Source: Nocardia brasiliensis NBRC 14402 (GTDB lineage Bacteria > Actinomycetota > Actinomycetes > Mycobacteriales > Mycobacteriaceae). From it: a stretch of 32,000 nucleotides of DNA. Numbering within the stretch: the stretch's first letter is position 1; each line of letters begins with the position of its first letter. Both the position numbers and the translations under genes were made by a program. The stretch spans positions 67,873 to 99,872 of the forward strand of contig NZ_BAFT02000104.1 in assembly GCF_000308475.2 (NCBI RefSeq). The letters are read 5' to 3'. The notes beneath the pieces were generated by a model. The model searched no databases and was not told the DNA's origin. It worked only from the letters and a program-made list of their open reading frames with translations. This document shows positions 7,622 to 28,943 of the stretch, piece by piece.

Positions 7622-7656
7622 CAAATCTGCCCCCGCTTTCGTGCTGTGTATCAAAA

Positions 7657-8040: not shown

Positions 8041-8069
8041 GTAACAAACTGTACGATTCTGCCTAATAT
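8041..8069 (+). promoter_or_regulatory. candidate sigma70-like promoter for the EamA transporter gene
   Basis: GTAACA (8041-8046), a 17-nt spacer, then TAATAT (8064-8069), in a locally A/T-richer stretch. Sequence match only. Confidence 0.25.
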
Positions 8070-8126
8070 GCTGTACGGCAGCTGAAGGTGGCAAACCTTT
8101 GGCGATCGAGGGGACGGTGTACCACG

Positions 8127-9110: not shown

Positions 9111-9128
9111 TCGCCGAGCCCGGTGCGT

Positions 9129-9154
9129 TAGATTGGGCCTAGCGGCACAATCTA
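9129..9154. promoter_or_regulatory. inverted repeat TAGATTG-N12-CAATCTA upstream of the XRE-cupin regulator (candidate operator or -10 region)
   Basis: Arms at 9129-9135 and 9148-9154 are exact reverse complements. The repeat lies in the 58-nt gap before ATG 9169. TAGATT also fits the -10 pattern TAnnnT. CTAGCG is repeated at 9139 and 9152. Confidence 0.3.
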
Positions 9155-9168
9155 GCGAACGGTGGTCG

Positions 9169-9744: not shown

Positions 9745-9750
9745 GGCGGC

Positions 9751-11598: not shown

Positions 11599-11795
11599 TT
11601 CACTCCGATCGGCGGGAGACCCTGCCCCTGCGTTTCGGCAGTTTCTCAAGATAGACATTAGTAATGCCCACTGCGGCACAACAATACGACGAATGTTCCA
11701 TTTTTGTGTCCTGAAAGGCGTCTGGCACATGGCCGTTCGGCTATGGCCGCGGTCTCGTCGTTGACGGAATGCGGCAGTGGCCGGAGAGTGATCCT

Positions 11796-13354: not shown

Positions 13355-13389
13355 GGCGAATCCTGTGGTCTCGAGAGTCGGGAAAGGGA

Positions 13390-14268
13390 TCAACGCAGCT
13401 GGTTTCCGGCGATGAGCGCGAGCCGGTCCGCGGTGTCGCCGGGTACGCCCGCGGGGTCCGACATGACGGCGTGCCGCATCGCGTCGGCGCACTCGCAGTC
13501 GCGCGCCGTGCCGTCCGAGGACGCGGCGAACTTGCGGATGATGTCCTTGGCCGTCGCGATGTTGGCCCGCATCACCGACGCGACCATGTCTGCGGTGACG
13601 GATGGCCCTCCGGTGCGCCAGCAGTCGTAGTCGGTCACCAATGCCAGTGTGGCGAAACAGATTCCGGCCTCCCGCGCGAGTTTGACCTCGGTGGCCGCGG
13701 TCATGCCGATGATGTCGGCGCCCCAGGCTCGGTAGAGCTCCGATTCGGCTCTGGTGGAGAACTGCGGCCCCTCGATGCAGACGTAGGTGCCCGCGCGATG
13801 CACGGTCGCACCAGCCGACGCGGCGACGTCGGTCAGCCCGGCGCGCAGCACCGGGCAGAAGGGGTCGCCCAGCGGTACGTGCGCGACCAGGCCGGCCCCG
13901 AAGAAGGTGGACCGGCGGTGCCGGGTCAGGTCGACGAGCTGGTCGGGCACCACCAGATGGCTCGGCTCGATCTCGTTGCGGAGACTGCCGACGGCGCTGA
14001 TGCTGAGGATGCGCTGGACCCCGAGTTGCTTGAGCGCGTGGATGTTCGCCGCGGCGGGCACTTCGGTCGGCAGGTAGCGGTGGCCGCGGCCGTGCCGGGC
14101 GAGGAAGGCGATGGGGCGCCCGTCGAGTACGCCGACGCCGACCTGGTCGCTCGGGTCGCCGTAGGGCGTGGTGAGGGCGACTTCGCGGCGGTCGGCGAGC
14201 GTTTCCAGGTCGTACAGCCCGCTGCCGCCGATGATGCCGAGTTCGATTTCTGCCGTAGGTGCAACCAT
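13390..14268 (-). CDS. flB: MTAP/PNP-family nucleoside phosphorylase (5'-fluoro-5'-deoxyadenosine phosphorylase type)
   Basis: Motifs: LGIIGGSGLYDL, FLARHGRGHRY, NI.ALK.LGV, GPQFSTRAES..YR.WGADIIGMT, all typical of 5'-methylthioadenosine phosphorylase. The FlB-specific role is inferred from position next to the fluorinase. Confidence 0.85.
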   Translation of the reverse strand: MVAPTAEIELGIIGGSGLYDLETLADRREVALTTPYGDPSDQVGVGVLDGRPIAFLARHGRGHRYLPTEVPAAANIHALKQLGVQRILSISAVGSLRNEIEPSHLVVPDQLVDLTRHRRSTFFGAGLVAHVPLGDPFCPVLRAGLTDVAASAGATVHRAGTYVCIEGPQFSTRAESELYRAWGADIIGMTAATEVKLAREAGICFATLALVTDYDCWRTGGPSVTADMVASVMRANIATAKDIIRKFAASSDGTARDCECADAMRHAVMSDPAGVPGDTADRLALIAGNQLR

Positions 14269-14287
14269 GGTATCCGTCCCGGAGTTT

Positions 14288-14300
14288 GCCGAATTTCGGC
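14288..14300. promoter_or_regulatory. 6-1-6 palindrome GCCGAA-T-TTCGGC in the flB/SAH-hydrolase divergent intergenic region
   Basis: Read directly. It lies 20 nt upstream of the flB start codon (minus strand), so it could be an operator or a 5'-UTR hairpin. Confidence 0.25.
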
Positions 14301-14498
14301 GCGACTGAACTGTCTGCCGACGATCTTCAGGATATCGGCGGTCCGATCCGTGCCGCGATGTGCCGATCGGCGCAAATTGCTACACATTACGGCGTGTCAC
14401 CAATTGCTTGCCGTCGTATCTTCTGCTTACCCCGCTGATCTGCGTTGTATTGGACGGTACGTCGCCCTATCGTCAGTACGGACAGTGGTCGAGCATTT

Positions 14499-15953
14499 AT
14501 GGAGTTGACCGTGACAACTGAATTCTATTATCGGGTCGCCGATCTATCACTTGCCCATTTCGGGCGCCAGGAAATCGAACTCGCCGAGCACGAGATGCCG
14601 GGCCTCATGGCGCTGCGCGAACAGTATGCGACCAGCAAACCGCTGACCGGTGCCCGTATTTCCGGTTCGTTGCACATGACCGTGCAGACCGCCGTGCTGA
14701 TCGAAACGCTGACGGCGCTCGGCGCCCAGGTGCGCTGGGCGAGTTGCAATATTCTCTCGACGCAGGATCACGCGGCCGCCGCCGCGGTCGTCGGGCCGTC
14801 CGGCACGGTCGAGGACCCGCGGGGTGTTCCCGTGTTCGCCTGGAAAGGCGAAACACTCGACGAGTACTGGTGGGCCACCGGGCAGATGCTCGACTGGCCC
14901 GACGGCGCGGGGCCGAACATGCTGCTCGACGACGGCGGTGACGCCACGATGCTGGTGCATCGGGCGGTCGAGGCCGAAAAGCTCGGCGCCGTAGCGGATC
15001 CCGGTGCCGAGCAATCGGCCGACGACGAGGTGATCGACGCGCTGCTACGGGCCTCGCTGGCCGCCCACCCGCGCAAGTGGACCGACCTCGCCGCAGGCAT
15101 CCGTGGTGTCACCGAGGAGACCACCACCGGTGTCCACCGGCTCTATCAGATGGCGAACAGCGGTGCGTTGCTGTTCCCGGCGGTCAACGTCAACGATTCC
15201 GTCACCAAGTCGAAGTTCGACAACCGGTACGGCATCCGGCACTCGCTGATCGACGGCATCAATCGCGGCACGGACGTGCTGATCGGCGGAAAGGTCGCGG
15301 TCGTCTGCGGTTACGGGGACGTGGGCAAGGGATGTGCGGAGGCGCTGCACGGACAGGGGGCCCGCGTCGTGGTGGTGGAGATCGACCCGATCTGCGCCCT
15401 GCAGGCCGTGATGGACGGCTTCCAGGTGGCCACGCTCGACGACGTGGTCGGCTTCGCGGACATCTTCGTCACCGCCACCGGGAACGTGGACGTCATCACC
15501 GCCGATCATCTCGCGGCCATGAAGCATCAGGCGATCGTGGGCAATATCGGCCACTTCGACAATGAGATAGACATGGCGGGCCTGGCTCGGATCGCGGACG
15601 TCCGCAAGGAGAACATCAAGCCGCAGGTCGACAAGTGGGTCTTCCCGGACGGCCATGCCGTGCTCGTCCTCTCGGAGGGCAGGCTGCTCAATCTCGGCAA
15701 CGCCACCGGCCATCCGTCGTTCGTCATGAGCAACAGTTTCGCGAATCAGGTGCTCGCCCAAATCGAACTGTTCACCAAGTCGGCGCAATACCCGGTAGGT
15801 GTGTACACGCTGCCGAAGCGACTGGACGAAATGGTCGCGCGTTTGCATCTGCCCGCTCTCGGTGCCCGGCTCTCGACCTTGACGCCGCGGCAGTCGGACT
15901 ATCTCGATATTCCGATCGAAGGTCCGTACAAGCCGGAGCAGTACCGCTACTGA
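14499..15953 (+). CDS. ahcY: S-adenosyl-L-homocysteine hydrolase (FlI-type)
   Basis: Motifs: [63 protein letters not shown], the NAD motif [10 protein letters not shown], and GHFDNEID. Classical SAHH along its full length. Confidence 0.95.
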
Positions 15954-16023
15954 CGCCCGCCCGGGCGGCTACCGGGCATCGAGATTTCCGCCCGTGGAGG
16001 TGGCGGAATTCACCGCACAGTAA

Positions 16024-16944
<921 letters not shown>

Positions 16945-17014
16945 TCCAGCACTGTCGGCGGCCGGTCGGGCCAGTTCGGGCCGGCCGTCGGCATCGGCCT
17001 GCAAGGAGGGTCAA

Positions 17015-18445
17015 ATGTCGCTGTCCCGTGGCGATTTCGCCAGTCTGTTCGTCGCGCTGATCGTCATCCTGGTCGCCGCTCATCTCGGGGCGCAGATCTG
17101 TGCGAAACTGCGCCAGCCGCCGGTGATCGGCGAGATCCTCGGTGGACTGTTCTTGGGGCCCACGGTGTTCGGGCAGGTGGCGCCGGGCGTGGCGAGCCAA
17201 TTGTTCCCCGCCGGCGGTGTCGTCCACGCCGGAATCCAGATGCTCAACGAGTTCGGACTGCTGCTGCTGATGTTCCTGGCCGGGCGGGAGGTCATGACCT
17301 ATCGCAATCCCGGCAAGCAGCGCACCGTGGCGGCGTTGGCCGCGGCCGGGCTGGTGATTCCGATGGTGCTCGGGGTCGGGGTGGCCCTCGCGCTCGACCA
17401 CGCCGACTACTCCGGCCCGCACGGGACCGATGCCACCTTCGCCCTCATCTTCGGAATCGCCTTCGCGGTCACCAGCATTCCGGTGATTTCGCGGATAATG
17501 CTCGACCTCGGGTTGCTCAACACCAGCTTCGCCCGGACCGTCCTCGCGGTCGCGCTGCTCGAGGACGTCGTGCTGTATGTGGCGCTCGCCGTGACGTTCA
17601 GCCTGGTCCAGAGCGACCAGAAGACATTCGGGCTCGGTTCACTGCTGCAACTGCACGGTACGGGCGCGATGGCGTACCAGGTGATCGTCAGCCTGGTTTT
17701 CATCACGGCGCTGCTGCTGGCCGGCAAGTGGTTGTTCAACCGGCTGGCCACGAGCAAGGTGAATCTGATGGAGAAGGCGAGTCCGATCGCGTTCCGGCTG
17801 GTATTCGCACTCGCGCTGGTCCTTTCGTGTGTGTTCCTCGGGATCAACGCCATCTTCGGCGCGCTCTTGGCCGGGATCGCCTCCTCCGATATCAGTGCGC
17901 CGCAAGGCAATCGGCATAGCAAGCCCGTGGCGGGCGCGGCCGCATGGGATACGATCAAGGACTTCTCGCTGGCGTTCTTCATCCCGATCTACTTCGCCGG
18001 GGTGGGCATGCAACTCGATCTGGCCCGCAACTTCGACCTCGTGTTCTTCGCCGCCTTCTTGCTGACCGCGACCGCGGTCAAGGGGCTCAGCATCTGGGCC
18101 GCCGCGCGCGCGGTGGGCGAATCGACCCGGTACGCGAAGAATTTCGCCGTCGCGCTGAACGCGCGTGGTGGCCCGGGAATCGTGCTGGCCACCGTCACGT
18201 TGTCCGCGGGCCTGATCAACGAGGAATTCTTCACCAGCATCGTGCTGCTCTCCATCGTGACGTCCTCGTTGGCCGGCATGTGGTTGGACTATGCGTTCCC
18301 GAGAACGCTACGTCCGTCGCTGCTCGCCACAGCCTCGAATCATGATGCGAGGACGCCGGACAACGGCGCCGCGGGAACTCGCGGCGGTGGCGCTGCGGCC
18401 GATCATGTGGTGGGGGCCGACGAAGCGCCCGGGCCCAAGTCGTAG
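17015..18445 (+). CDS. cation/H+ antiporter (CPA-type, FlH-like)
   Basis: AAGGAGGG precedes ATG 17015. The 476-aa polytopic membrane protein has a Na_H_Exchanger-like pattern (IGEILGGLFLGPTVFG, LLLLMFLAGRE). It is 70 nt downstream of flA on the same strand. Confidence 0.85.
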   Translation: MSLSRGDFASLFVALIVILVAAHLGAQICAKLRQPPVIGEILGGLFLGPTVFGQVAPGVASQLFPAGGVVHAGIQMLNEFGLLLLMFLAGREVMTYRNPGKQRTVAALAAAGLVIPMVLGVGVALALDHADYSGPHGTDATFALIFGIAFAVTSIPVISRIMLDLGLLNTSFARTVLAVALLEDVVLYVALAVTFSLVQSDQKTFGLGSLLQLHGTGAMAYQVIVSLVFITALLLAGKWLFNRLATSKVNLMEKASPIAFRLVFALALVLSCVFLGINAIFGALLAGIASSDISAPQGNRHSKPVAGAAAWDTIKDFSLAFFIPIYFAGVGMQLDLARNFDLVFFAAFLLTATAVKGLSIWAAARAVGESTRYAKNFAVALNARGGPGIVLATVTLSAGLINEEFFTSIVLLSIVTSSLAGMWLDYAFPRTLRPSLLATASNHDARTPDNGAAGTRGGGAAADHVVGADEAPGPKS

Positions 18446-19410
18446 TCGAACGGTGCGCAATGGGTGACTTCGACGGCGAAACCGTCGGGCTGCGACCGAT
18501 CGATCTGTCGCTCGCCCTTGTTCTGCGCGACGACGTGCGCGAAGGTCGGGGCGAGGACGGGATCGTCGGCCGCGGGCGCGGGCCGGAAGAAGCGAACCAG
18601 TTCGGCGAGCGCCGTGCGGGCACTCGCGGTGTTGAGCTCGTGCGTGGCATCGGACAGCACGACGATGGCGGCCGACGCGTGGTCGCGGAAGGCATACTCC
18701 ACCGCGTGCAGATCGACCCAGGAGTCGCGGCTGCCCTGGACCGCCAGAATCGGCACGGATTCGATCGACCGGACATCGGCGTGGGTGGATTCGGTGGTGT
18801 GCCAGCCCAATTCGACCAGCCGCTGCACGAACCGCCATTTCACCTCGTGGTCGAGCACGAGCGCGGTGCGGTCGGGGTCGGTCTGCTCGCCGCGCAGCCA
18901 CTGCCCGATGAAGTCCTGGTCGTTGGCCGCCGCGATGGTGGCCTGCATGTCGACCACGGCGGAGATGGCGCCGATCGCGACCGGACGCCGACCCGACCGG
19001 GCGGCCGCCGCGAACGCTATGCGCGAGGCGATACTCGCGGTGAACAGGGCGGCGGGTCCGCTGCGCGGGCCACAGCTCGCGACCCAGTCGTGCACCAGCG
19101 CGAGATCCGCGGCGAGCGCATCGGGGGTCAATTCCAGTATGGTTCCGTCGCTTTCGCCTACATGATTGGTGGGGTCGTAGCGAATGACGTCGAACCCGTT
19201 GAGGAGAAAGTAGAGGGCGACGGCACGGCCGCGGCGCATCACCGTGCCGAACGGCGGTGCCACGATGACCCGGCCGACCGGGTCGTGGTTACCGGGCTGG
19301 AATTGGCGTAGGCCACGCAACATGCCGCGGGGCGTGGGCAGTTCGAACCGCTCCGACCGCACGGTCACCGGAGTGGTCGAACGGCGATGTCCTACTGGTG
19401 CTGTCGTCAT
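18403..19410 (-). CDS. luxD: LuxD-family acyl transferase/thioesterase (alpha/beta hydrolase)
   Basis: Aligns by eye to Vibrio LuxD. Compare VIVAPPFGTVMRRGRAVALYFLLNGFDVIRYDPTNHVGESDGTILELT with ILIASGFARRMDHFAGLAEYLSENGFHVFRYDSLHHVGLSSGSIDEFT. The nucleophile region FTASIASRIAF matches IAASLSARVAY. The start overlaps the luxE-like stop (ATGA at 19407-19410). Confidence 0.75.
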   Translation of the reverse strand: MTTAPVGHRRSTTPVTVRSERFELPTPRGMLRGLRQFQPGNHDPVGRVIVAPPFGTVMRRGRAVALYFLLNGFDVIRYDPTNHVGESDGTILELTPDALAADLALVHDWVASCGPRSGPAALFTASIASRIAFAAAARSGRRPVAIGAISAVVDMQATIAAANDQDFIGQWLRGEQTDPDRTALVLDHEVKWRFVQRLVELGWHTTESTHADVRSIESVPILAVQGSRDSWVDLHAVEYAFRDHASAAIVVLSDATHELNTASARTALAELVRFFRPAPAADDPVLAPTFAHVVAQNKGERQIDRSQPDGFAVEVTHCAPFDYDLGPGASSAPTT

Positions 19411-20540
19411 CGGATGACCTCGGCGTCGAGTCGTAGGGCGCAGCCGCGAGTTTCGGCCGTCGTGATGCGGCGCACGACGGTGAGCACCGCGGAGTCGTTG
19501 CCGCACGGGCAGCTGCCCTCGCGCGACACCGAGCCCAGATCGTCGGTCGCCACGAAGCCCGGATAGCTGGTGGGGGAGGCGTCGCAGAACGCGAGCACGC
19601 CGACCTCGCCGGGCGGCAGCGCCCGCATCGTCGCCGGGTCACGCGCACTCGTGTGCAACCATGCGGGCACATGTTTGGCGCGGAACCGGCATTCGAACAA
19701 CACCGTGTTCAGCTCGACCGCGTTGTAGCAGTCGCGGATCGGCGCGTCACCGGCCAAACCGAAAGCAGCCGTGACGAATTCCTCGAAGTCCCGCCGGGAC
19801 ATGGCCGTCGCGTCCGCGCGCTTCCAGCCGCCGGCGGTGATGACGAGGCCATTGCGCGCACCGAGGCCGGGATCGATGCCGCGTTCGCGCAGCGCTGCCG
19901 CGAGATCCCGGACCAGGGCGGGTGGTCCGATGATCACCGGCCGGTCGATTGACTGGTCGAGCAACGCCGCGATCACCTCATCGATCCGGAAAATGTTTGC
20001 GCTGACGAAGAATCGGGTGGGATGCAGCAGATCGACGATGCTGAGCACGTAGGAAAACCAGAGATCGCCGGCCTCGGTGGTGTCCGGCCCGAGCACGAAC
20101 AGCTGCCGTTCGATATCGGGATTCGGTAGGGCGAGCCGGCTGCCCTGATCGATGCTGCCGACAAAACGCTCCAGAGTGGTCCCGTCGCGATATATCCGGC
20201 TTTTCGTACCCCGGGTACCGCTGCTGGTGCAGACCTGCACCACTTTTTCGGGCGCACAACTCGAAACAGTTCGGCGCTTGAACACCGAGGCCGGTATCAG
20301 CGGCAACGACTCGATGAAACCGGGCCGGTCCAGCCGGGACAGCGACCATTCGTTGGCTTCGGCATAACGCCGGTAGGCTGCGCAGCGCTGCCAATGGTGC
20401 TGCACGGCAGCGCGCATCAATTCGTCGCGGAGTTCACGGAGCTCGGCCCCGGCCAGCGTGAATGCATCGTCGCGCTGGTGGATCAGATCATCGATCGCCC
20501 GAATGGCGTCGATGACCGTGACCTTGGCGTGCGTGGTCAT
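19407..20540 (-). CDS. luxE: LuxE-family acyl-protein synthetase (adenylate-forming)
   Basis: 377 aa, the size of LuxE. Motifs: IP.SVFK, CTSSGTRGTKSRIY (LuxE has TSSGTSG..S), ITAGGWK (LuxE has GGGWK), and the C-terminal CPCG...RGCA, as in LuxE. Confidence 0.8.
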   Translation of the reverse strand: MTTHAKVTVIDAIRAIDDLIHQRDDAFTLAGAELRELRDELMRAAVQHHWQRCAAYRRYAEANEWSLSRLDRPGFIESLPLIPASVFKRRTVSSCAPEKVVQVCTSSGTRGTKSRIYRDGTTLERFVGSIDQGSRLALPNPDIERQLFVLGPDTTEAGDLWFSYVLSIVDLLHPTRFFVSANIFRIDEVIAALLDQSIDRPVIIGPPALVRDLAAALRERGIDPGLGARNGLVITAGGWKRADATAMSRRDFEEFVTAAFGLAGDAPIRDCYNAVELNTVLFECRFRAKHVPAWLHTSARDPATMRALPPGEVGVLAFCDASPTSYPGFVATDDLGSVSREGSCPCGNDSAVLTVVRRITTAETRGCALRLDAEVIR

Positions 20541-20564
20541 GCTCTTCCCTCGATCGGCGCCCGG

Positions 20565-20786
20565 TCAGTCGATGATGTTGATGCAGCGTGACGGGCATTC
20601 GGCCGCCGCGCGGTGCACCTGCTCCTCGTGTTCGCCGGGCACGAGCAGCGCCTTGGGCGCGCAGTCGGCGCCGACGTCGGCCTTCACGTACGCCACATAT
20701 TCGTCGTCCGTCGCGAACATCGCCGCAGCGTGTTCACAGCACAGCTCCGCACCTTGGCAGAGCGTGCGTTCGATCCACACCCGCAT
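20565..20786 (-). CDS. small single-cluster ferredoxin (3Fe-4S/4Fe-4S type)
   Basis: From ATG 20786: MRVWIERTLCQGAELCCEHAAAMF...ECPSRCINI, which fits C-x2-A-x2-C...C-P as in actinomycete Fdx partners. GAGGAG lies upstream. It sits 25 nt upstream of the luxE-like gene. Confidence 0.75.
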   Translation of the reverse strand: MRVWIERTLCQGAELCCEHAAAMFATDDEYVAYVKADVGADCAPKALLVPGEHEEQVHRAAAECPSRCINIID

Positions 20787-20853
20787 TGTTTCCAGGGCTC
20801 CTCGTGCCAGAATTTCTCGGCCAGTTCGTGCTCCCTGTCCACCAAACGGTAAT

Positions 20854-20863
20854 TGCCATGGCA
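20854..20863. promoter_or_regulatory. perfect 10-bp palindrome TGCCATGGCA in the divergent promoter region of the lux-like cluster
   Basis: Read directly. It lies in the 295-bp, less G/C-rich gap between the ferredoxin operon (-) and the 432-aa/luxC operon (+). Nearby direct repeats: CGGTATTCG at 20899 and 20945, ATTCGGT at 20896 and 21008. Confidence 0.25.
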
Positions 20864-21081
20864 CTGTCAATACGTCGTTCAGCACACTTGTCGCGATTCG
20901 GTATTCGAAAATCCTCGCAAGGTAACGTGATTCGTACGACGGCGCGGTATTCGGCGGGCCATCGGTCACATACGCTCTGTCACTTTCGGGTTATCGCGTC
21001 AGCGAAAATTCGGTGATAGTTTCGGCGCAGTGCTCCCCAGCAATTCCAGTACGTACCGCGTACCTCTGATTGGAGCCGATC

Positions 21082-22380
21082 GTGTCGATCGAAACCATTC
21101 CGACGAGCATGTCGACGCTCGATGACGTCGCCGGACTGTTGTCCTGTTGTGCCGCAGAAGATTTCGCGGATTCGGCGCGGGATCTGATCCGGGCGGCGGG
21201 TGCCACGTTGATCTTCAGCAGGCATCACTGGCTGCGCTTCGGCGGGACCTGGCACGGCCGCAAAGAGTTCCGTGACGCGCTGACCGCGGTCGAGGCACGT
21301 CCGTACGAGACCTGGACCGAGGACGACGCGGAACTCGTCCTCGGGCTGGCCGCGCTGCGGCGCGCCGGGATCGGCCTCGAACAACTCGACGGTGAACTCT
21401 CGCTCCGGTCGGTGCGTGCGGTGCTGGCGCAACGGCTGGACGGCTACCTGTTGTCGATCGGCCAGCCGCGGACGCTGGATCACCTGACCCTGCTGGAGCT
21501 CGCCGACCGCATCCGTAGGGTCAGGGAATACGTCGAGCGGGACTACTTCAGGTATTCGGTGATCGATGGCGCGAAGTGGCATCGCACGGAGGGGCTGCTC
21601 GCCCGCGCCCAGGTGAGTTGGACCGAATTGCCCGGCCGGGTGGTCGAGGAGTTGACCGCCATCGCACCGGGCCTGCCCGACACCCGCCTCGCGGCGCGCT
21701 GGCTTCCTGCGGCCACCAGGCAATGCCTCAGCGCCCGTGGGCAATCCAAGGATCTCGTCGAGGCGCTGATGCGGTGCGCAGTGCGTGATCGCGTCCTCTC
21801 GGTCGACCATGTGACGGTCACCTGCGTGCGCGGGGTACTGCTCGACCGCCCCGGCGAGCTGGACGCGTCCGACCAGTTCTTCACGCATACGGTGCTCGAC
21901 GACGGCCTGGCCCTGGCCGGCTTCGCCGAGCAACTGGGGCACGAGTCGGAACAGCGCCTGCGCGCGACCTTGCGGGCCCGGATGATCAAACTGAAGCGCA
22001 AAGCGGTGGTGAACTATTTCGGCGACGGTTGCCTGCGCGGCGAATGGGTCGAGAAGGCCGCCGACAACATGATCTTCTTCAACGAGGACACCCACTACCG
22101 CGGTCATCAAACCGTCGGGTGCTCGACCGGTGGCCGTTCGGCGTTCGAGGTGAGCTACCACCGTGACCGAGCCGAACACACACTGCCGGCGATGATGGGC
22201 GACTTCCGGGTGGTCCGGTTGTCGCATGATCCCTCTCGCCGCTTCGCGGTGGACAACCTACGCCACGTGATTCGATACGCACAGTGGGTGCGACTGGTCG
22301 TGCAGGAGACCTTCCGTGCGGGCGGTGTGCTGGAGCTGCTGCCGAGCGAACGGTCCGGGGGTGCCGGATGCACGAGGTAG
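21082..22380 (+). CDS. hypothetical protein, no recognisable family (first gene of the luxC-like operon)
   Basis: GGAG at 21072-21075 lies 6 nt before GTG 21082; ATG 21109 is an alternative start. Coding-type G/C third positions. The 3' end overlaps the luxC-like start by 13 nt. I recognise no motifs. Confidence 0.65.
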   Translation: MSIETIPTSMSTLDDVAGLLSCCAAEDFADSARDLIRAAGATLIFSRHHWLRFGGTWHGRKEFRDALTAVEARPYETWTEDDAELVLGLAALRRAGIGLEQLDGELSLRSVRAVLAQRLDGYLLSIGQPRTLDHLTLLELADRIRRVREYVERDYFRYSVIDGAKWHRTEGLLARAQVSWTELPGRVVEELTAIAPGLPDTRLAARWLPAATRQCLSARGQSKDLVEALMRCAVRDRVLSVDHVTVTCVRGVLLDRPGELDASDQFFTHTVLDDGLALAGFAEQLGHESEQRLRATLRARMIKLKRKAVVNYFGDGCLRGEWVEKAADNMIFFNEDTHYRGHQTVGCSTGGRSAFEVSYHRDRAEHTLPAMMGDFRVVRLSHDPSRRFAVDNLRHVIRYAQWVRLVVQETFRAGGVLELLPSERSGGAGCTR

Positions 22381-23813
22381 CGCTGCCTATCGTCGTGAAC
22401 GGCGAGACGGTGGCCGACAGCGGGGTCGAACCGCTGGTCGTCACCTACGAATCGGGCTGGCGGATCACGATTCCCCGGCCGACCGCCGAACTGGTCGGGG
22501 ACGTGCTGAAGACGCGACGAGACGCGCTCGCGGAGCTGCACCTGGACGAGATCACGGTGTTCCTCGAGCGGGTCGGCCGATTGTGGGGCGATCCCGGCTA
22601 TCCGGGCCGCCGCGACGCTGTCGCGCTGGCGGCGCGGATCACCGGCTACCACGAGGCGATGATCGAGGACGACTACACGCGGGTAGCGCGCGCCTGTGCA
22701 CGGGCCAAACTCTACGACATCGTCGAGACGGACCTGGACAATCCACTGCTGCTCGATGATTGGCTGCCCAAGCAGTCGATCTTCTTGCGCGCGTTGCCCA
22801 AAGGGCGCGTACTGCATTTGATGGTCGGCAATGTTGCGCTGGCCGGGCTGTTCACAGTGATCCGCGGGTTGCTCACGAAGAACGTGACCGTCGCGAAACT
22901 GCCGCGCCGCGATCTGGTCTCGACGCTGGCCTTCGCCCGCACCTTCGCCGACGTCGATCCCTGGCATCCGCTCACCCGCGCGCTTTCCGTACTCTATTGG
23001 CCCGGCGGGGATCCGATCGAGCAGGTTTTCATCGACGCTGCGGATGTGGTGTGCGCGTGGGGAAAACACTCCTCGATCGCGGCGATCAAGCCGCGGATCC
23101 CGGTCGGGACCGAGCTGGTGGAGTTCGGCCCGAAAGAGAGCATCATCCTGATCGGCGCCGACGACGGCGGCTGGGCCGACGTCGCGGTGCGTGCGGCGTA
23201 CGACCTGAGCGTCTACGAGCAGGAGGCCTGCTTCAGCCCACAGCGGATCTTCGTCGAAGGCGACGGCGACGCCTTCGCCGCCTCGCTCGTGCGCGGGCTC
23301 GAACATGTGGCGCAACGGCTTCCGTGCGGTTTCCGGACTGTCGACGCCCAGGCGCACATCACCCGGGCGCGGCAGGAGGCCCGGTTCGACGGGTACCGGG
23401 TCCGGCAGAGCGCCGGGTCGGAGTGGACGGTGGTGACCGTCCCGCCGGGGGAGACGCCGGTCCTGGAACACCCGCTGGGCCGGACCGCCTACGTCTATTC
23501 CGTCGCGCGGCTGGCGGACGCCGTGGCGGCGGTGCACCGGGACACGCAGACCGTCGCCGTGTATCCGTGGCACCGCGGCAAGGAGTTCGGACGCGAACTC
23601 ACGTTGGCCGGGGCCTCGCGCATCACCGAGGTGGGCATGATGAGCAGGCCCCGCCCCGGGTTCGTGCACGACGAGATGCGTCCGCTGCACTCGCTGGTGC
23701 GCTGGGTTTCGGTGGAGCGCGGTCTGGACTACCGAGGTCGCTTCCGGGCTGCGGATCGAGCCGAATTCGAGCAGCGGATCTACGGTCTGCCGGTTCGCGA
23801 TGCGGGCGAATGA
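22368..23813 (+). CDS. luxC: LuxC-family acyl-CoA/acyl-protein reductase
   Basis: 481 aa, the size of LuxC. LuxC-like blocks: VLHLMVGNVALAGLFTVIRGLLTKNVTVAKL, HPLTRALSVLYWPGGD, VVCAWGKHSSIAAI and EQEACFSPQRIFVEG (Cys in the position of the acylated active-site Cys context). Confidence 0.8.
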   Translation: MHEVALPIVVNGETVADSGVEPLVVTYESGWRITIPRPTAELVGDVLKTRRDALAELHLDEITVFLERVGRLWGDPGYPGRRDAVALAARITGYHEAMIEDDYTRVARACARAKLYDIVETDLDNPLLLDDWLPKQSIFLRALPKGRVLHLMVGNVALAGLFTVIRGLLTKNVTVAKLPRRDLVSTLAFARTFADVDPWHPLTRALSVLYWPGGDPIEQVFIDAADVVCAWGKHSSIAAIKPRIPVGTELVEFGPKESIILIGADDGGWADVAVRAAYDLSVYEQEACFSPQRIFVEGDGDAFAASLVRGLEHVAQRLPCGFRTVDAQAHITRARQEARFDGYRVRQSAGSEWTVVTVPPGETPVLEHPLGRTAYVYSVARLADAVAAVHRDTQTVAVYPWHRGKEFGRELTLAGASRITEVGMMSRPRPGFVHDEMRPLHSLVRWVSVERGLDYRGRFRAADRAEFEQRIYGLPVRDAGE

Positions 23814-24931
23814 CGATGGGGGACAGGCCGATCAAGACGGCGGTACTCGGCGCGGGCGATGCGGGCCGGGCGTTGGCGGCAGTGGTGGCGCGGGCCGGAT
23901 GCGAGGTCCGGCTCTGGAATCGGACCGCCGCGCATCTCGCGGATATCGAGGACGCGACACTGACCCTGCGCGACCCGGACACGCATACGGTCCACCTCGC
24001 GGCGGTGTCGACGGATCTCGACGCGGTGTGCTCGGGCGCGGATCTCGTGCTGGTTGCGGTGTCCGCCGCCGCACAGCGTGACCTGGTCACGGCATCCTGG
24101 CCGGCACTGCGGCGGGCCGAGGCGGTCGTGCTCGTGCCCGGGCACACCGGCGGCGTCCTGGAGGTCACCACTGCGTTGCGCGACCGGGTGGACTGGTGTG
24201 AGACCGCGCCCGGCCCGGCCGTCGCCGAGATGATCCTGCCTTTCGTCTGCCGCGGCGAGGGACCGTCGATCGTCCGAATCTTCCAGTACAAGAGGGATGT
24301 TCCGCTCGGGGCGCGACAGCGGCGGCACGCGGACCGCGCCCGCGACCTGCTGGTGCGAAGTGTTCCCGCCGTTCGCAGCGCGGCCTCGATCTGGGAGACG
24401 AGTCTGGCCAATGTCACGGCCGTGATCCAACCCGTTGTGGCCCTGGCCAATCTGGCGCGGCTCGACCGCGGTGACCGGCATCGTTTCTACGCCGAGGGGG
24501 TATCGTCCGCGGTTGCGCGAATCATCGAGGCCGCCGACCGGGAGCGGGTGCTGCTCGGGCGCGAAGTGGGGGTGCGATTGCCGACCGCGTTGGGCTGGTT
24601 CGGGCAGACCTACGATGGCACCGCAACCAGTTTGGCCGACGCGCTGAGTGCGGCCCCTGGATATCGGTCCATCCTCGCCCCGTGCGGCACCGACCATCGC
24701 TTCCTCGACGAGCACGTGCGGACCGGTACGGTGCCGTTGGCCGCGCTCGCCATGCTGGTCGGCACGCCGCACCGGCAATTGGACGCCATCGTCACGATGG
24801 CCTCGGCCGCGACCGGCCGCGAGCTGTACCGGAACGGTCGAACGCTCGCTCGGCTGGGCATCGGATCACGGGCGGACATCATGACTCTCATGGGTCCGCC
24901 GGCCTACGCGACCGAAGGTACGGCGAGATGA
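23810..24931 (+). CDS. NAD(P)-dependent opine (octopine/nopaline) dehydrogenase-family protein
   Basis: The ATGA overlap with the luxC stop sets the start. N-terminal Rossmann motif: KTAVLGAGDAGRALA. The C-terminal helical domain fits the Octopine_DH family (FYAEGVS..VARIIEAADRERV.LGREVGV...YRSILAP...HRFLDEHV.TGTVPLA...GRTLARLGI). Confidence 0.7.
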   Translation: MTMGDRPIKTAVLGAGDAGRALAAVVARAGCEVRLWNRTAAHLADIEDATLTLRDPDTHTVHLAAVSTDLDAVCSGADLVLVAVSAAAQRDLVTASWPALRRAEAVVLVPGHTGGVLEVTTALRDRVDWCETAPGPAVAEMILPFVCRGEGPSIVRIFQYKRDVPLGARQRRHADRARDLLVRSVPAVRSAASIWETSLANVTAVIQPVVALANLARLDRGDRHRFYAEGVSSAVARIIEAADRERVLLGREVGVRLPTALGWFGQTYDGTATSLADALSAAPGYRSILAPCGTDHRFLDEHVRTGTVPLAALAMLVGTPHRQLDAIVTMASAATGRELYRNGRTLARLGIGSRADIMTLMGPPAYATEGTAR

Positions 24932-26118
24932 TCGAGACATCGACCACGCCGGAATTGCGCAAGCAGGTCGTATTGGAGTGTCGTGCCTGCGGTTACCACG
25001 TCACGGCCGCCTTCGTGCCGCGGTGCCCCTGCTGCGGGGGCGCCACCGACGTGTTCTACGACCTGACCCGCGCGCAAATCCGCGACGACGGCAATCCGCT
25101 GGTGCGCTGGTTCGACCTGTTGCCGCTGACCGACTTTCAGCACACCGTGTGGCTCGGTGAGGGCAATACCCCGCTGCTGTGGGCACGTGAACTCGGGCGC
25201 TGGGCGGGCCTGGACTTCCTGTACCTGAAAGCGGAGAACGCCAATCCGAGCGGGACCGCCAAGGACCGGATGGCGGGTGTGGCCATGCCGTTCCTGGTCC
25301 AGCAGGGCGTGACCGAGTTCGTCATCTCGTCCACCGGCAACAGTTCGACCTCGATGGGCCGGTGCGCCGCGCGCATGCCGGAGGTGACGCTGCACATCTT
25401 CGGCGCCCGGGACTTCCTGGACCGGATCGATGTGCCCGACGCGCCCAATGTGCGGGTGTACTGCGTAGACGCCGACTACGTCGGTGCGGGCGCGGCGGCC
25501 GCGCGGTTCGCCGCCGAGCGCGGTCTGCCGTTCGAGAGCGGCTTCTTCAATCCGGCGCGGCGCGAAGGTCTGAAACTCGCTTATCTGGAGGCCTTCGACC
25601 AACTGGCGCCGCGCGCACCCGACGTCGTCGTGCAGGCGGTGAGCAGCGGGATGGGCATCTACGGTGCGTTCAAAGGCGCCACCGAATACGTGGCGCTCGG
25701 CAGGCTGGCGCGGGTGCCGCGCATCGTCTGCGCACAGCAATCACGATGTGCGCCGATGTACGAGGCCTTCCGGGACAACTCGGCGACGATCCGCCCCGAG
25801 CACATCAAACGGCGTCCGAGCGGTATCGCCAAGGCCATCCTGCGGGGGAACCCGGCGGATTCCTACCCGTTCGTCCACCGGATCGTGCAAGCGACGGGTG
25901 GCGCCTTCGAGGCCGTGTCGGACCAGGAGATTCTCGCGGCCAGACGACTCGCCTGGGATCTGGAAGAGGTGGACGCGTGTCTCACCTCGTCGGTGGCCCT
26001 GGCCTGCGCGATGAAGCTGGCGCGGGCCGGCTGGCTGAGTCGAGACACCGTGACGCTCGTGAATGTCACCGGGAGGGAACGGCCGCCGGCCGCACCGGCC
26101 TATGTGAACTACGTCTAG
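24928..26118 (+). CDS. threonine-synthase-like fold-type-II PLP enzyme with N-terminal zinc ribbon
   Basis: The ATGA overlap with the upstream stop sets the start. Zinc ribbon: CRACG-x12-CPCCG. PLP-lysine context ENANPSGTAKDRM (canonical N-P-T-G-S-F-K-D-R). STGNSS and SSGMG glycine-rich phosphate-binding segments. Confidence 0.75.
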   Translation: MIETSTTPELRKQVVLECRACGYHVTAAFVPRCPCCGGATDVFYDLTRAQIRDDGNPLVRWFDLLPLTDFQHTVWLGEGNTPLLWARELGRWAGLDFLYLKAENANPSGTAKDRMAGVAMPFLVQQGVTEFVISSTGNSSTSMGRCAARMPEVTLHIFGARDFLDRIDVPDAPNVRVYCVDADYVGAGAAAARFAAERGLPFESGFFNPARREGLKLAYLEAFDQLAPRAPDVVVQAVSSGMGIYGAFKGATEYVALGRLARVPRIVCAQQSRCAPMYEAFRDNSATIRPEHIKRRPSGIAKAILRGNPADSYPFVHRIVQATGGAFEAVSDQEILAARRLAWDLEEVDACLTSSVALACAMKLARAGWLSRDTVTLVNVTGRERPPAAPAYVNYV

Positions 26119-26133
26119 GGAGGAAAGCCGCAG

Positions 26134-27219
26134 ATGAGATTCGACATCGTACTGAGCGTCGCGCAGCGGCCCGGTATCGGTCAGCAGGAAACGTTCGCGG
26201 CCGCGATACGGTCGGCGCAGTGGGCCGAGGAACTCGGCTATTCCGGAATATGGCTGCTGGAACACCATTTCACCAACTACAGCCTGTGCACCAACGCCCT
26301 CAACATGGCATCGTTCCTGCTGGGCGGAACCGAGCGGATCCGAGTCGGCTCCGCGATCACCATCGTTCCGCTGGAACATCCGATCAAGCTCGCCGAACGA
26401 GTCGCGATGCTCGATCATCTCAGCGGTGGGCGTTTCGATTTCGGCATCGGCCGTGGCACCTACGCCCGGGACTTCGAAGCCTTCGAGGTCGATATGACGG
26501 TGAACCACCAGGCATTGGTCGAGACCATGGAGCAGGTGGCGCGGGCGTGGGGCGAAGAGCCGTACGTGATCTCGTCGATGGACGGCAGCCCGGACGCGGT
26601 GCCGGTGCAGCCGAAACCGCTGACGCGACCGCATCCGCCGGTCTACGTCGCCTCCGGCTCGCCGGACACCGTCGGATGGGCGGCGGCACACGGATACCCG
26701 CTGCTGATCCGAGAAGCCATGCCGGACAACGAGAAACGGGCACTGCTGGCGCGATACCGCGAAGCGGCCGGACCGCACGGACAGTTCGACGCGGCCGCGC
26801 GGCACGCGCTGACCTGCATTGCCGTACTGGACGACACGGACGACCGTGCCGCGGACACCGTACGCGAGCACGTGGGGTGGTGGGTCGCCGAGGGCGCGAC
26901 CTCGAACGGGTTGCTGGCGCGCCGGCACCTGCTGCCGAACTATCGCACCTATTTCGAGGCGGTCGACGCGGGCCGCAAGGCCGGGGGCCGGGACGCGTCC
27001 GGCGTGGTCGAAAAGATGATTCCGCTCAATCTGGTCGGCACGCCGCAGCGCTGCCGGGAACGCCTCACCCAGCTGCACGAGTCGACCGGGCTCGGGCACT
27101 ACATACTCGCCTTCGACGCGAATCCGCCAGGGGAGCCCACCTATCGGGTGATGCGACGCTGCATGGACGAGGTGCTGCGACCCGTCGCCGCCGCGTGCGA
27201 AGGGACGCTCGTACCGTGA
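26134..27219 (+). CDS. bacterial-luciferase-family (LLM) flavin-dependent monooxygenase, LuxA-like
   Basis: GGGAGGAAAG precedes ATG 26134. WLLEHHFTNYSL..N......LLGGTE.I.VG.A....P..HP...AE....LD..S.GRFDFGIGRG.Y..DF..F..DM is collinear with LuxA WLLEHHFTEFGL...[23 protein letters not shown]. 361 aa. Confidence 0.8.
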   Translation: MRFDIVLSVAQRPGIGQQETFAAAIRSAQWAEELGYSGIWLLEHHFTNYSLCTNALNMASFLLGGTERIRVGSAITIVPLEHPIKLAERVAMLDHLSGGRFDFGIGRGTYARDFEAFEVDMTVNHQALVETMEQVARAWGEEPYVISSMDGSPDAVPVQPKPLTRPHPPVYVASGSPDTVGWAAAHGYPLLIREAMPDNEKRALLARYREAAGPHGQFDAAARHALTCIAVLDDTDDRAADTVREHVGWWVAEGATSNGLLARRHLLPNYRTYFEAVDAGRKAGGRDASGVVEKMIPLNLVGTPQRCRERLTQLHESTGLGHYILAFDANPPGEPTYRVMRRCMDEVLRPVAAACEGTLVP

Positions 27220-28943
27220 TCACCGACCGTTCGGACTATGACGTCGTCGTGCTGGGTGGTGGGCTGGCCGGGCTCAGTGTCGCCCGGCAGATGCTCTTGC
27301 GCAGACCGGAAACCACCGTCCTCGTCGTGGAGCGGGTGCCGCATCCGGTCCGCGCGGCCGCGCACAAGGTGGGCGAATCCACGGTCGTGATCAGCGGCAC
27401 CTACTTCGCGGAAACGCTGCAGCTGCGCGAACATCTGGAGCAGGCTCAGATTCGTAAGACGGGCCTGCGGTTCCTGCCGTCCGTTTCGGTACCGCCGCCG
27501 CCGCTGTCGCAGCGCGCGGAATCGGGGCCGAGCGGGTTCTTCTACGCGTCGGCGACCTTTCAGCTCGATCGCGGCGTCTTCGAGAACGCGTTGGGTGAGA
27601 TCGTCGCAGCGGGCGGTGCGGAGTTCCGGCACGGGTATCGGGTCGTCGACGTACGCCTGAAATCGGGTGCGCCGCACGAGGTCGTGATCGCGCGGGCGGG
27701 CGCTGGACAGACCGTGCGGGCGCGGTGGGTGATCGACGCCACCGGACGGCGCGGCCTGCTCAAGAGCAAACTCGGCCTGCGCAAGGACAGCCCGCACAAC
27801 TGCGACGCCGTGTGGTTCCGGCTGAGCGAGATGATCTGGATGGACGAACTCGCCGAGGAGGAGGTGGGCACCTCTGCGGCCGCCAAATCGGCCTGGCGAG
27901 AAAGGGTTCCGGAGGGATTGCGCTGGCGGTCCACCAATCATCTGATGGGCAAGGGCTATTGGGTCTGGCTCATCCCCTTGGTGTCGGGGTCGATCAGTGT
28001 CGGTATCGTGTCCGATCCGCGGTATGTGCCGTTCGAGGAGATCGGCACGTTCGAGGCCGCGCTCGACTGGCTGACCCGGCACGAGCCCGAGGTCGCGCGC
28101 GCCGTCACCCGGCACCAGGAGTCGTTGCAGGACTTCAAGCGGCTGCGGCACTTCGCCCACAGTTGTGCGCAAGTGTATTCCGGCGATCGGTGGGCGTTGA
28201 CCGGCGAAGCGGGTGTTTTCAACGATCCGCTGTACTCGCCCGGCAGCGATTTCATCGCGATGTCGAATACCTTGGTGACCGATATGGTCGTTCGGGACCT
28301 GGGCGGGGCGGCGATCGACGACCTCGCGGCGCGACTGAACGACTTCTACCTCGAGGTGTACGACACCCTGCTGCCGGTGTGGACCGATCAGTACCGGCTG
28401 ATGGGCAATCCGCAGGTGTGGTTCGCGAAGCTGATCTTCGACCGGTATCTGCACCATGCGTTCTTGGGCCTGCTGATCCGCAGCAACACCACCGACGCCT
28501 ACGCACCCGCGGTCATCGGCGCCGAGCTGGCCGGCTTCCGGCTGCTGAACGAGCGCATGCAGGCCTTCTTCCGGGAATGGGACGAACGAGAACCGGGACG
28601 CGATCACTGCCACTTCTTCGATCACACCGGCACGCCGGCCCTGAAGTCGTCCTTCGGCACGTCCGGCGACCACGGTCCGCTCGGTTCGGCGGAGATTCGT
28701 CGCCGGCTCGGCGCCAACCGCCGCGTCCTCGAGGCCATGATGCAGGTGATCATGGCTCGCGCGGCGACCCGCATCGGCTACCCGACAGCCGCGTGTGACA
28801 TCGATCCGCGCACGTTCACGTTGGGCGATCTTCCGCTGGCAGGCAAACGCGCCAACCGGGACCAGGACGCGCTGATCGAGTTCATATCCGAGCTGTTGCA
28901 AGACAATTGGCTGCCCGTGAGCCCGGTCGAGGTCGCCGGGTAG
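27216..28943 (+). CDS. flavin-dependent halogenase (tryptophan-halogenase family, non-Trp type)
   Basis: The GTGA overlap with the LLM stop sets the start. FAD motif DVVVLGGGLAGLS. KVGES lysine context. The diagnostic W-x-W-x-I-P motif appears as GYWVWLIPL. FNDPLYSPGSDF fits F-x-D-P-x-x-S-x-G. Confidence 0.8.
   Translation: MITDRSDYDVVVLGGGLAGLSVARQMLLRRPETTVLVVERVPHPVRAAAHKVGESTVVISGTYFAETLQLREHLEQAQIRKTGLRFLPSVSVPPPPLSQRAESGPSGFFYASATFQLDRGVFENALGEIVAAGGAEFRHGYRVVDVRLKSGAPHEVVIARAGAGQTVRARWVIDATGRRGLLKSKLGLRKDSPHNCDAVWFRLSEMIWMDELAEEEVGTSAAAKSAWRERVPEGLRWRSTNHLMGKGYWVWLIPLVSGSISVGIVSDPRYVPFEEIGTFEAALDWLTRHEPEVARAVTRHQESLQDFKRLRHFAHSCAQVYSGDRWALTGEAGVFNDPLYSPGSDFIAMSNTLVTDMVVRDLGGAAIDDLAARLNDFYLEVYDTLLPVWTDQYRLMGNPQVWFAKLIFDRYLHHAFLGLLIRSNTTDAYAPAVIGAELAGFRLLNERMQAFFREWDEREPGRDHCHFFDHTGTPALKSSFGTSGDHGPLGSAEIRRRLGANRRVLEAMMQVIMARAATRIGYPTAACDIDPRTFTLGDLPLAGKRANRDQDALIEFISELLQDNWLPVSPVEVAG

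Follow-up and report, generated by a model that had tools for sequence, protein, structure and literature searches.

A lux-like divergon beside the fluorinase cluster of Nocardia brasiliensis encodes a predicted short-form KinJ-type haem enzyme and belongs to a recurrent actinobacterial family of loci

We analysed a 32,000-nucleotide stretch of the genome of Nocardia brasiliensis NBRC 14402 (contig NZ_BAFT02000104.1, positions 67,873 to 99,872), referred to here as the window, in which nine genes at positions 18403-28943 form two tightly packed divergent operons. Open reading frames (ORFs) were called with guidance from the GC content at third codon positions (GC3), and protein families were assigned by profile searches against Pfam, NCBIfam and the sequences of the PDB. 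The minus operon has the order ferredoxin, LuxE-like, LuxD-like. The plus operon begins with the gene of a 432-aa protein and continues with genes for a LuxC-like protein, a protein of the Octopine_DH family, a ThrC-like pyridoxal phosphate (PLP) enzyme of the PALP family, a LuxA-like luciferase-like monooxygenase (LLM) and a flavin-dependent halogenase. Sequence comparison indicates that the 432-aa protein is a divergent short-form member of the KinJ/FzmP/NegJ superfamily, predicted to be a haem b enzyme, and that the locus is a variant of a recurrent actinobacterial family with a seven-gene core. The features of the divergon are as follows.

18403-19413, minus strand: LuxD-like acyl-ACP (acyl carrier protein) acyltransferase/thioesterase, 336 aa; PF02273, 59 bits, E 5.5e-16; last gene of the minus operon
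19407-20540, minus strand: LuxE-like acyl-protein synthetase, 377 aa; PF04443, 210 bits, E 5e-62
20565-20786, minus strand: small single-cluster ferredoxin, 73 aa; Fer4_15, E 2.9e-10; first gene of the minus operon
20787-21081, no strand: divergent intergenic (control) region, 295 bp; read directly
21082-22380, plus strand: KinJ/FzmP/NegJ-superfamily protein, 432 aa; GTG start; no Pfam or NCBIfam match, assigned by profile-profile homology
22368-23813, plus strand: LuxC-like acyl-thioester reductase, 481 aa; PF05893, 274 bits, E 2e-81
23807-24931, plus strand: opine-dehydrogenase-fold NAD(P) oxidoreductase, 374 aa; PF02317, 113 bits, E 1.9e-32
24928-26118, plus strand: ThrC/cysteate-synthase-like PLP enzyme, 396 aa; PALP, 151 bits, E 5.6e-44
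26134-27219, plus strand: LuxA-like monooxygenase dependent on reduced flavin mononucleotide (FMNH2), 361 aa; PF00296, 201 bits, E 4.3e-59
27216-28943, plus strand: flavin-dependent halogenase, 575 aa; assigned by motifs and by matches to PltA, CtcP and CmlS

Start and stop codons overlap at five junctions, namely LuxE/LuxD, KinJ-like/LuxC, LuxC/opine dehydrogenase, opine dehydrogenase/ThrC-like (ATGA) and LLM/halogenase (GTGA). These overlaps fit two operons, and because of them the LuxA-like gene and the halogenase gene are placed in the plus operon. The E-values of the family matches are far beyond chance. The nine genes with their families, as well as the two divergent operons around a 295-bp control region, had already been proposed in an earlier reading made from the sequence alone (the sequence-only reading). 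All its coordinates and assignments hold in the ORF/GC3 analysis and the profile searches, and the spacer is exactly 295 bp long.

The sequence-only reading had regarded the 432-aa protein as unassignable. Pfam searches with all 29 members of its family gave only weak HemN_C matches in six of them (E 0.004), and a profile of the family had no match among the PDB sequences. An exhaustive profile search with the family retrieved 81 relatives, among them proteins of 560-670 aa, and those of 560-610 aa carry the peptides RMQYNSWH and TDFFCCVVP. The same peptides are encoded by the mutagenic primers of the KinJ paper (PRM498QYNSWH504 and TDFFC468CVVP; Kenney et al. 2025, preprint). One relative, P0100, contains both, followed by HHxGH-x9-R. 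When the 432-aa family (A1) was compared by hhalign with 18 KinJ-motif proteins (A3), whose place in the KinJ family rests on the primer-derived peptides and not on the KinJ sequence itself, the two aligned over 322 columns with 99.6% probability and an E-value of 2e-23. By profile search and hhalign the protein is thus assignable to the KinJ/FzmP/NegJ superfamily.

KinJ, FzmP, NegJ and FsnU2 are haem b enzymes without recognisable domains (Kenney et al.; independent preprint by Shi et al.). Together with a partner ferredoxin the KinJ family carries out a four-electron reduction of nitrite and builds a hydrazine onto L-Asp or Gly (Kenney et al.; Shi et al.). Haem enzyme and ferredoxin occur in the pathways of kinamycin (KinJ/KinI), fosfazinomycin (FzmP), negamycin (NegJ) and fluostatin (FsnU2/FsnV). 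In KinJ, His541 has been proposed as the axial haem ligand, with His537 nearby in an HxxxH arrangement; R497, R551 and R570 have been related to anionic substrates, and Met498 has also been singled out (Kenney et al.). In our alignment R304-M305 pairs with KinJ R497-M498, H342 and H346 with H537 and H541, R356 with R551, R380 with R570, and FFT272 with FFC468. H342 and H346 are invariant across the 29 family members and are aligned to the HHxGH motif of the KinJ-like proteins; R304-M305, R356 and R380 are invariant likewise, and in both families the Arg stands 10 positions after the His. The AlphaFold2 (AF2) model of the 432-aa protein has a pLDDT (predicted local distance difference test score) of 90, and in Foldseek it gave only weak matches, to PAS/GAF-like ligand-binding domains and bacteriophytochromes in the C-terminal part; a similarity of KinJ to the GAF fold has been reported (Kenney et al.).

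On the basis of this homology we propose that the 432-aa protein is a nitrite-dependent hydrazine (N-N bond) synthase. Since the protein belongs to the KinJ superfamily, the sequence-only reading had missed what would be the central chemistry of the locus, the formation of an N-N bond from nitrite. An assignment as an ADO-like metallo-oxygenase or diiron protein, which the invariant His, Glu and Asp residues had prompted, was superseded by the KinJ homology. The published KinJ survey excluded sequences shorter than 450 aa (Kenney et al.), so that the short-form subfamily would have been filtered out. Fig. S15 in the supplement of the same paper notes two KinJ-type clusters in N. brasiliensis, one of them with a 4Fe-4S ferredoxin; the present locus may or may not be one of the two.

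The partner ferredoxins are of diverse types across the KinJ family (Kenney et al.). The ferredoxin of the present locus has cysteines at positions 10, 16, 17, 42, 64 and 68 and the motif CxxAxxC...CP, and its gene lies 295 bp from the KinJ-like gene and is transcribed divergently. In 20 of 23 related loci, as in the window, a ferredoxin is encoded adjacent to the KinJ-like gene or not far from it. By analogy with the characterised systems we propose that the ferredoxin is the electron donor to the KinJ-like haem enzyme. The likeness to these systems comprises homology over about 320 residues, within which the R-M pair, the HxxxH motif with its axial His and the three Arg residues are conserved, a dedicated ferredoxin gene, and the setting in a cryptic actinomycete cluster without creD/creE, as is the case for most family members. 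Two further observations concern possible partners. In the remote KinJ-like homologues P0037, P0039 and P0050 a domain of the UDP-glucose/GDP-mannose-dehydrogenase family is fused to the N-terminus, and in two of the type I loci described below the opine-dehydrogenase-like gene runs into the beginning of the KinJ-like gene. Fusions and overlaps hint at a functional pairing of dehydrogenase and KinJ-like protein.

The family of the 432-aa protein is small and has no Pfam model, and the DNA around the relatives of the protein shows two contexts. In the first (type I), seven genes recur together in at least nine other loci of Actinomycetota: ferredoxin, LuxE, LuxD, KinJ-like, LuxC, opine-dehydrogenase-like and ThrC-like. 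The divergon is hence not the orphan for which it had been taken. Hosts of type I are Streptomyces sp. NPDC059517, an Actinophytocola metagenome-assembled genome (MAG), Microbispora hainanensis, MAGs of Solirubrobacterales and other Actinomycetota, and metagenome contigs. In most of them the core forms a single co-directional operon in the order just given, wherefore the divergent layout of N. brasiliensis looks like an inversion of the ferredoxin-LuxE-LuxD block. Accessory genes are variable and include HamA_HO-like oxidases (five loci), methyltransferases, ATP-binding cassette (ABC) exporters, a glycosyltransferase, a cytochrome P450 and parts of nonribosomal peptide synthetases (NRPS); HamA acts in diazeniumdiolate formation. 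Within Nocardia only the N. brasiliensis group has the cluster, as judged from species-representative genomes.

Apart from N. brasiliensis, only Streptomyces sp. NPDC059517 was found to have the LuxA-like gene, at 63% identity. The loci L004, L018, L021, L022, L023 and L027, for which the reading covered 8-10 kb of flank or the contig in full, lack it; L006 ends right after the ThrC-like gene and is not scorable in this respect. Halogenase and fluorinase are confined to the two lineages of N. brasiliensis, collinear with each other at 93.7% identity over 16.9 kb. We infer that the LuxA-like enzyme and the halogenase are accessory tailoring enzymes.

In the second context (type II), found in Actinospica, Kitasatospora, Actinomadura, Micromonospora and Streptomyces, NRPS/ABC clusters contain a cassette made up of a protein of the 432-aa family, a ferredoxin and an oxidase of the Haem_oxygenas_2 family. 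The loci concerned are L002, L009-L010, L012-L017 and L020, with the cassette at about 10000-12400 in each (about 3600-6000 in L010). The cassette is 66-69% identical between genera, and the locus of Actinomadura litoris also encodes a Peripla_BP_2 siderophore-type binding protein. These settings suggest that type II cassettes may supply hydrazine-derived building blocks to peptides or metallophores.

The placement of three proteins in the LuxC, LuxE and LuxD families, made in the sequence-only reading, was borne out, as all three lie above the Pfam cut-offs (LuxC 21, LuxE 24.9 and Acyl_transf_2 20.3 bits). The NCBIfam equivalog cut-offs are not reached (LuxC 302 versus 750, LuxE 262 versus 550, LuxD 61 versus 420 bits). 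The only PDB relatives of the LuxC- and LuxE-like proteins are the two partners of the Photobacterium LuxC-LuxE complex 7XC6, with 261 bits to LuxC (7XC6_A) and 211 bits over the full length to LuxE (7XC6_E), and the sole PDB match of the LuxD-like protein is LuxD of V. harveyi (1THT, 53 bits). We took Cys286 of LuxC, the C-terminal Cys of LuxE and Ser114/Asp211/His241 of LuxD to be the catalytic residues of the lux enzymes. The LuxC-like protein keeps the catalytic Cys (YEQEAC288FSPQ), the LuxE-like protein keeps the C-terminal acylation Cys (ETRGC367AL), and equivalents of the LuxD triad are present at TAS127, SRD230 and ATH258, the His being matched by its motif (ATHEL) beyond the aligned block.

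The opine-dehydrogenase-like protein aligns with CENDH (PDB 1BG6) with 153 bits over residues 12-354. The catalytic apparatus of CENDH is, as we take it, the pair His202-Asp297 together with Arg292. In the protein of the window His202 is replaced by Gln and Asp297 by His, and Arg292 is kept. We aligned ten type I proteins (the window, L001, L004-L008, L018, L021 and L023). The position of His202 is occupied by Gln or a hydrophobic residue, that of Asp297 by His in nine of the ten and by Asn in L018; Arg292 is present in all ten, and most have a His at the position of Thr291. The assignment as an opine dehydrogenase made from sequence alone thus stands with regard to family and full-length similarity, though not with regard to the canonical catalytic His/Asp pair, and the subfamily would seem to use a non-classical substrate or mechanism.

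The ThrC-like protein matches M. tuberculosis ThrC (2D1F) with 101 bits and cysteate synthase (9K3C) with 65 bits. It keeps the PLP Lys (GTAK112DR aligned to GSFKDR of 2D1F), has an N-terminal Cys4 zinc ribbon, and lies under every NCBIfam threshold (PRK08197 151 versus 303, TIGR00260 76 versus 167, cysteate synthase 108 versus 325 bits). Cysteate synthase provides a precedent for a ThrC-derived beta-replacement with a nucleophile other than water. Homologues at 45-50% identity are found in other secondary-metabolite clusters. Two such loci, with homologues at 48-52% identity, are L029 (Actinoplanes teichomyceticus, 9001-12414) and L028 (Streptomyces sp. WM6372, 7822-9009), one beside genes of the 4-hydroxyphenylglycine (Hpg) pathway and an NRPS, the other beside transketolase/thiamine pyrophosphate (TPP) enzymes and a carbamoyltransferase. 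From these contexts the ThrC paralogue class appears to be a widely used means of producing non-proteinogenic amino acids. The pair of PLP enzyme and dehydrogenase resembles SbnA/SbnB (and AlaA/AlaB), which form diamino acids via an opine-like intermediate, in that a fold-type-II PLP beta-replacement enzyme using a phospho-ester amino acid is joined by an NAD(P) enzyme acting on the C-N bond of a secondary amine. It is an analogy only, since the PLP enzyme here is ThrC/cysteate-synthase-like and not CysK-like, and the dehydrogenase has the opine-dehydrogenase fold and not the ornithine-cyclodeaminase fold.

Flavin-dependent halogenases are marked by the motifs GxGxxG, a catalytic Lys, WxWxIP and Fx.Px.Sx.G. 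The halogenase of the window has GGGLAG at 14, HK51VGES, WVWLIP at 249 and FNDPLYSPG at 335. It is 100% identical to a 575-aa protein of N. brasiliensis and remote from all solved halogenases (best PDB matches PltA with 59 and CtcP with 49 bits; NCBIfam CmlS with 65 bits). The three structures nearest to it, PltA, CtcP and CmlS, score 48-59 bits. Homologues at 55-56% identity sit in unrelated clusters; because these clusters differ, no substrate can be inferred. Near the closest homologues outside Nocardia there is a protein of the Na_H_Exchanger family (L025 12599-13906, L026 12194-13462), the family to which flH/nobH belongs. This proximity may be a coincidence or may reflect a link in halide or ion handling.

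Taking these genes together, we lean towards reading the locus as a cryptic secondary-metabolite cluster whose product would be an N-N-bonded amino-acid metabolite derived from a fatty aldehyde and tailored by a flavin monooxygenase and a halogenase. While gene content, operon packing, family membership, catalytic residues and conservation across genomes were read directly, we infer every chemical step. First, the LuxD-like enzyme would take an acyl chain off acyl-ACP, the LuxE-like enzyme would activate it with ATP and hold it on its C-terminal Cys, and the LuxC-like enzyme would reduce the thioester with NADPH to a fatty aldehyde; this step we consider likely. Second, the KinJ-like haem protein and the ferredoxin would reduce nitrite and couple it to the amine of an amino acid to give a hydrazino acid, which we hold to be rather more probable than not, if less so than aldehyde formation. 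Third, the ThrC-like PLP enzyme might make the amino-acid part or attach it, in a beta/gamma-replacement with a phospho-ester amino acid as substrate, a tentative assignment that extends to the generic role only. The ancestral chemistry of opine dehydrogenases is the reduction of a Schiff base between an amino acid and a carbonyl compound (imine reductase). Fourth, hydrazine and aldehyde could form a hydrazone whose C=N bond the opine-dehydrogenase-fold enzyme reduces to an N-alkyl hydrazino acid; alternatively, the same enzyme working in reverse could release an alkylhydrazine from its amino-acid carrier. Either course is doubtful. Fifth, and still more speculatively, the LuxA-like enzyme might act on the product, oxidising its hydrazine to azo/azoxy, or else turn leftover aldehyde into acid, and the halogenase might add Cl or Br; in the relatives HamA-like oxidases would fill the product-tailoring role. 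Confidence is thus highest for the making of the aldehyde, lower for that of the hydrazine, and lowest for coupling and tailoring.

We found no characterised cluster in the literature that joins LuxC/LuxE with a halogenase, an opine dehydrogenase, ThrC or N-N chemistry, which agrees with the earlier statement that no characterised pathway of such composition was known. The fatty-aldehyde-derived amino-acid product suggested at that time is compatible with the evidence, and what it lacked was the N-N chemistry. A further comparison is with the ham/pvf/mgo diazeniumdiolate clusters and the azoxy clusters of valanimycin and azodyrecin, which likewise combine an aldehyde-releasing module with N-N/N-O chemistry. 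HamA_HO-like genes are found in the five related loci already mentioned and methyltransferases in several. In contrast to these clusters, an oxidase of the HamA or VlmB type is missing from the N. brasiliensis locus, whose aldehyde would come from LuxCDE instead of an NRPS reductase domain. An azodyrecin/valanimycin-type azoxy cluster was considered as a candidate and rejected, as LuxC, LuxE, ferredoxin, threonine synthase and opine do not occur in the text of the azd paper.

Several points weigh against a nitrite-derived N-N product. The 432-aa protein is a distant relative of KinJ, with about 21% identity over the hhalign alignment, and its N-terminus is about 170 residues shorter (432 versus about 600 aa). 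KinJ C468 is replaced by Thr272 and QYNSWH by IKLKRK, so that N501 and H504 are not conserved. The ferredoxin is of the single-cluster kind with CxxAxxC, suggesting a 3Fe-4S cluster, and not of the 2[4Fe-4S] KinI type. The window contains no nitrite-generating creD/creE or nitric oxide synthase (NOS) gene, the downstream genes of the 'hydrazino cassette', FzmQ/R/N/O, are all absent, and neither a flavin reductase nor a regulator nor an exporter is encoded in the cluster. Lacking the canonical His/Asp pair, the opine-dehydrogenase-like enzyme is uncertain in its reaction. Finally, the proposed hydrazone and azoxy steps are chemical reasoning only, and these enzymes play no part in the characterised azoxy cluster of azodyrecin.

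The main competitor is a reading of the locus as a lux-like operon without luxB. The LuxA-like protein has the luciferase alpha subunit as its best NCBIfam model (168 bits over the full length, with the cut-off of 600 not reached), and in the PDB it scores 200 bits with LuxA of E. salina (EsLuxA, 8CBB), 168 with V. harveyi LuxA, 80 with LuxB and 96 with the next other LLM. The alignment to V. harveyi LuxA is full-length and ungapped across residues 208-311, taking in the mobile-loop region, with EHHF conserved. The protein retains E43-H44-H45, R107, Y110 and D113, and at position 106 it has Gly in place of Cys, a feature shared with EsLuxA, a proven dim luciferase. A scan of metagenomes for the LuxA-like protein gave only relatives at 28-37% identity, which were uninformative. 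By sequence, the protein belongs to the luxB-less 'protoluciferase' clade, as an accessory gene of the locus. Lux-like operons without luxB have already been published outside Gammaproteobacteria (Yudenko et al., Vannier et al.), catalogues of luciferases already list the present locus itself among luxA-like operons, with the layout 'D<E<xxCxxA', and mel2 of mycobacteria has been cited as another lux-like locus. The statement of the sequence-only reading that such a set is classically a Gammaproteobacterial feature therefore needs correction.

In such an operon the LuxCDE aldehyde would mainly be oxidised by the LuxA-like 'protoluciferase', and the 'x' genes would be unrelated passengers. The outcome would be dim light, an alternative oxidase, or detoxification of reactive oxygen species (ROS) or aldehyde as proposed for EsLuxA and mel2. 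The cataloguing, the closeness to EsLuxA, the catalytic residues kept in LuxC, LuxD and LuxE, and the location of all lux genes within one divergon speak for it. As in canonical luxCDABE of luminous Gammaproteobacteria, moreover, LuxC, LuxD and LuxE accompany a LuxA-clade monooxygenase, and the expected chemistry runs from acyl-ACP through the acid to the aldehyde. We nevertheless consider both the operon model and the outcomes attached to it improbable. In at least nine loci LuxD, LuxE and LuxC go along with the KinJ-like, ferredoxin, opine-dehydrogenase-like and ThrC-like genes, whereas a LuxA-like gene joins them in L001 only and is missing from the six loci read far enough. The 'x' genes are translationally coupled to luxC. 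There is no second LLM gene (luxB) in the window and no luxG-like flavin-reductase gene within the nine-gene divergon. Unlike luxCDABE, the locus also has another gene order, divergent operons and four interleaved non-lux genes, all its proteins are far under the equivalog thresholds, and LuxA Cys106 is replaced.

The likeness to the E. salina EsLuxA operon (CEDA type) and to mel2 is confined in the same way: LuxCDE of the present locus co-vary across genomes with the KinJ-like enzyme and ferredoxin, and with the opine-dehydrogenase-like and ThrC-like genes, rather than with LuxA. The literature on luxB-less operons did not identify the 'x' genes and proposed no biosynthetic role. Already known, then, are the layout 'D<E<xxCxxA', the lux-like actinomycete loci including mel2, and the KinJ family (2025). 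New are the identification of two 'x' genes as a short-form KinJ-type enzyme and a ferredoxin, the seven-gene core, and the presumed accessory standing of the LuxA-like and halogenase genes. The literatures on luciferases and on the enzymology of N-N bonds may both have touched this locus without connecting it.

Returning to the N-N-bonded metabolite, the locus offers, in a human pathogen, a concrete target on which a new class of N-N natural products derived from nitrite can be tested for, and a natural setting for asking what 'protoluciferases' did before light emission. In its boldest form, which we regard as rather unlikely, the seven-gene core would be a new route to N-N-bonded lipids, in which a fatty aldehyde from LuxCDE captures the hydrazine produced by a short-form KinJ-type haem enzyme. 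The LuxA-like 'protoluciferase' would be a tailoring oxygenase, and the N. brasiliensis product would fall into an undescribed class of halogenated alkyl-hydrazine, azo or azoxy amino acids. If this were true, the LuxA-LuxCDE partnership behind bioluminescence may have arisen inside a secondary-metabolite pathway.

A further alternative is a link to fluorometabolites, raised in the sequence-only reading on account of the adjoining fluorinase locus. The adjacency as such is real, with the fluorinase gene at 16042-16944 and the Na+/H+ antiporter gene at 17015-18445, so that the nob cluster abuts the divergon. At 18403-18445 the 3' ends of the antiporter gene (flH, plus strand) and the LuxD-like gene (minus strand) overlap convergently by 43 nt, and the two clusters are packed without a spacer or terminator between them. 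Both N. brasiliensis lineages share this arrangement in their collinear segment. Fluoroacetyl starters or 4-fluorothreonine from the nob cluster might then be drawn into a fluorinated lipid or amino acid, for instance via the ThrC-like enzyme. We regard this as very improbable. Besides the window, only the locus of N. brasiliensis IFM 10847 has flA within 10 kb; the 22 other related loci lack it over that distance. Since the seven-gene core exists at loci without a fluorinase, all core enzymes, the ThrC-like one among them, do their work in the absence of fluorometabolites. To our knowledge, flavin-dependent halogenases cannot oxidise fluoride. In addition, the published nob cluster stops at the antiporter (PMC3999930). 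The link to biological fluorination, attractive but without support from the comparison, is thereby removed. That the divergon consists of two independent housekeeping lipid or amino-acid operons standing back to back, without a single pathway, is hardly credible: the divergent orientation and annotated names such as threonine synthase and acyl-CoA reductase, which sound like primary metabolism, are outweighed by relatives that hold the same genes as one co-directional operon, by the patchy distribution, and by scores far under the NCBIfam equivalog cut-offs for all proteins.

The region 5632-18445 comprises the complete nob/fl fluorometabolite cluster. It encodes an FthB-like aminoacyl-tRNA editing protein, a LuxR-type response regulator, an FthC-like EamA exporter, a helix-turn-helix (HTH)-cupin regulator, a fusion of serine hydroxymethyltransferase (SHMT) and aldolase (4-fluorothreonine transaldolase), an IF-2B-type isomerase, a purine nucleoside phosphorylase (PNP), an S-adenosylhomocysteine (SAH) hydrolase, the fluorinase and the Na+/H+ antiporter. 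ORFs of 292, 502, 300 and 476 aa in the window match nobB, nobI, nobA and nobH in length (PMC3999930). Upstream of the fluorinase cluster, at 787-5013, lie the genes of an 834-aa protein without a Pfam match and of a 568-aa cell-wall hydrolase with Peptidase_M15 and glucosaminidase domains.

In the 295-bp control region between the two operons we found no sigma-70-type consensus promoter and no match to an Rfam family. The RNA fold z-score of the region is -1.2, which is not significant, and its repeats are short and at chance level. The GTG start of the KinJ-like gene at 21082 is preceded at a distance of 6 nt by GGAG. A stretch of 77 nt upstream of this gene (20972-21048) has a single mismatch to N. 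brasiliensis IFM 10847, compared with about 20 in the neighbouring 110 nt, and this conserved stretch may be a promoter or operator.

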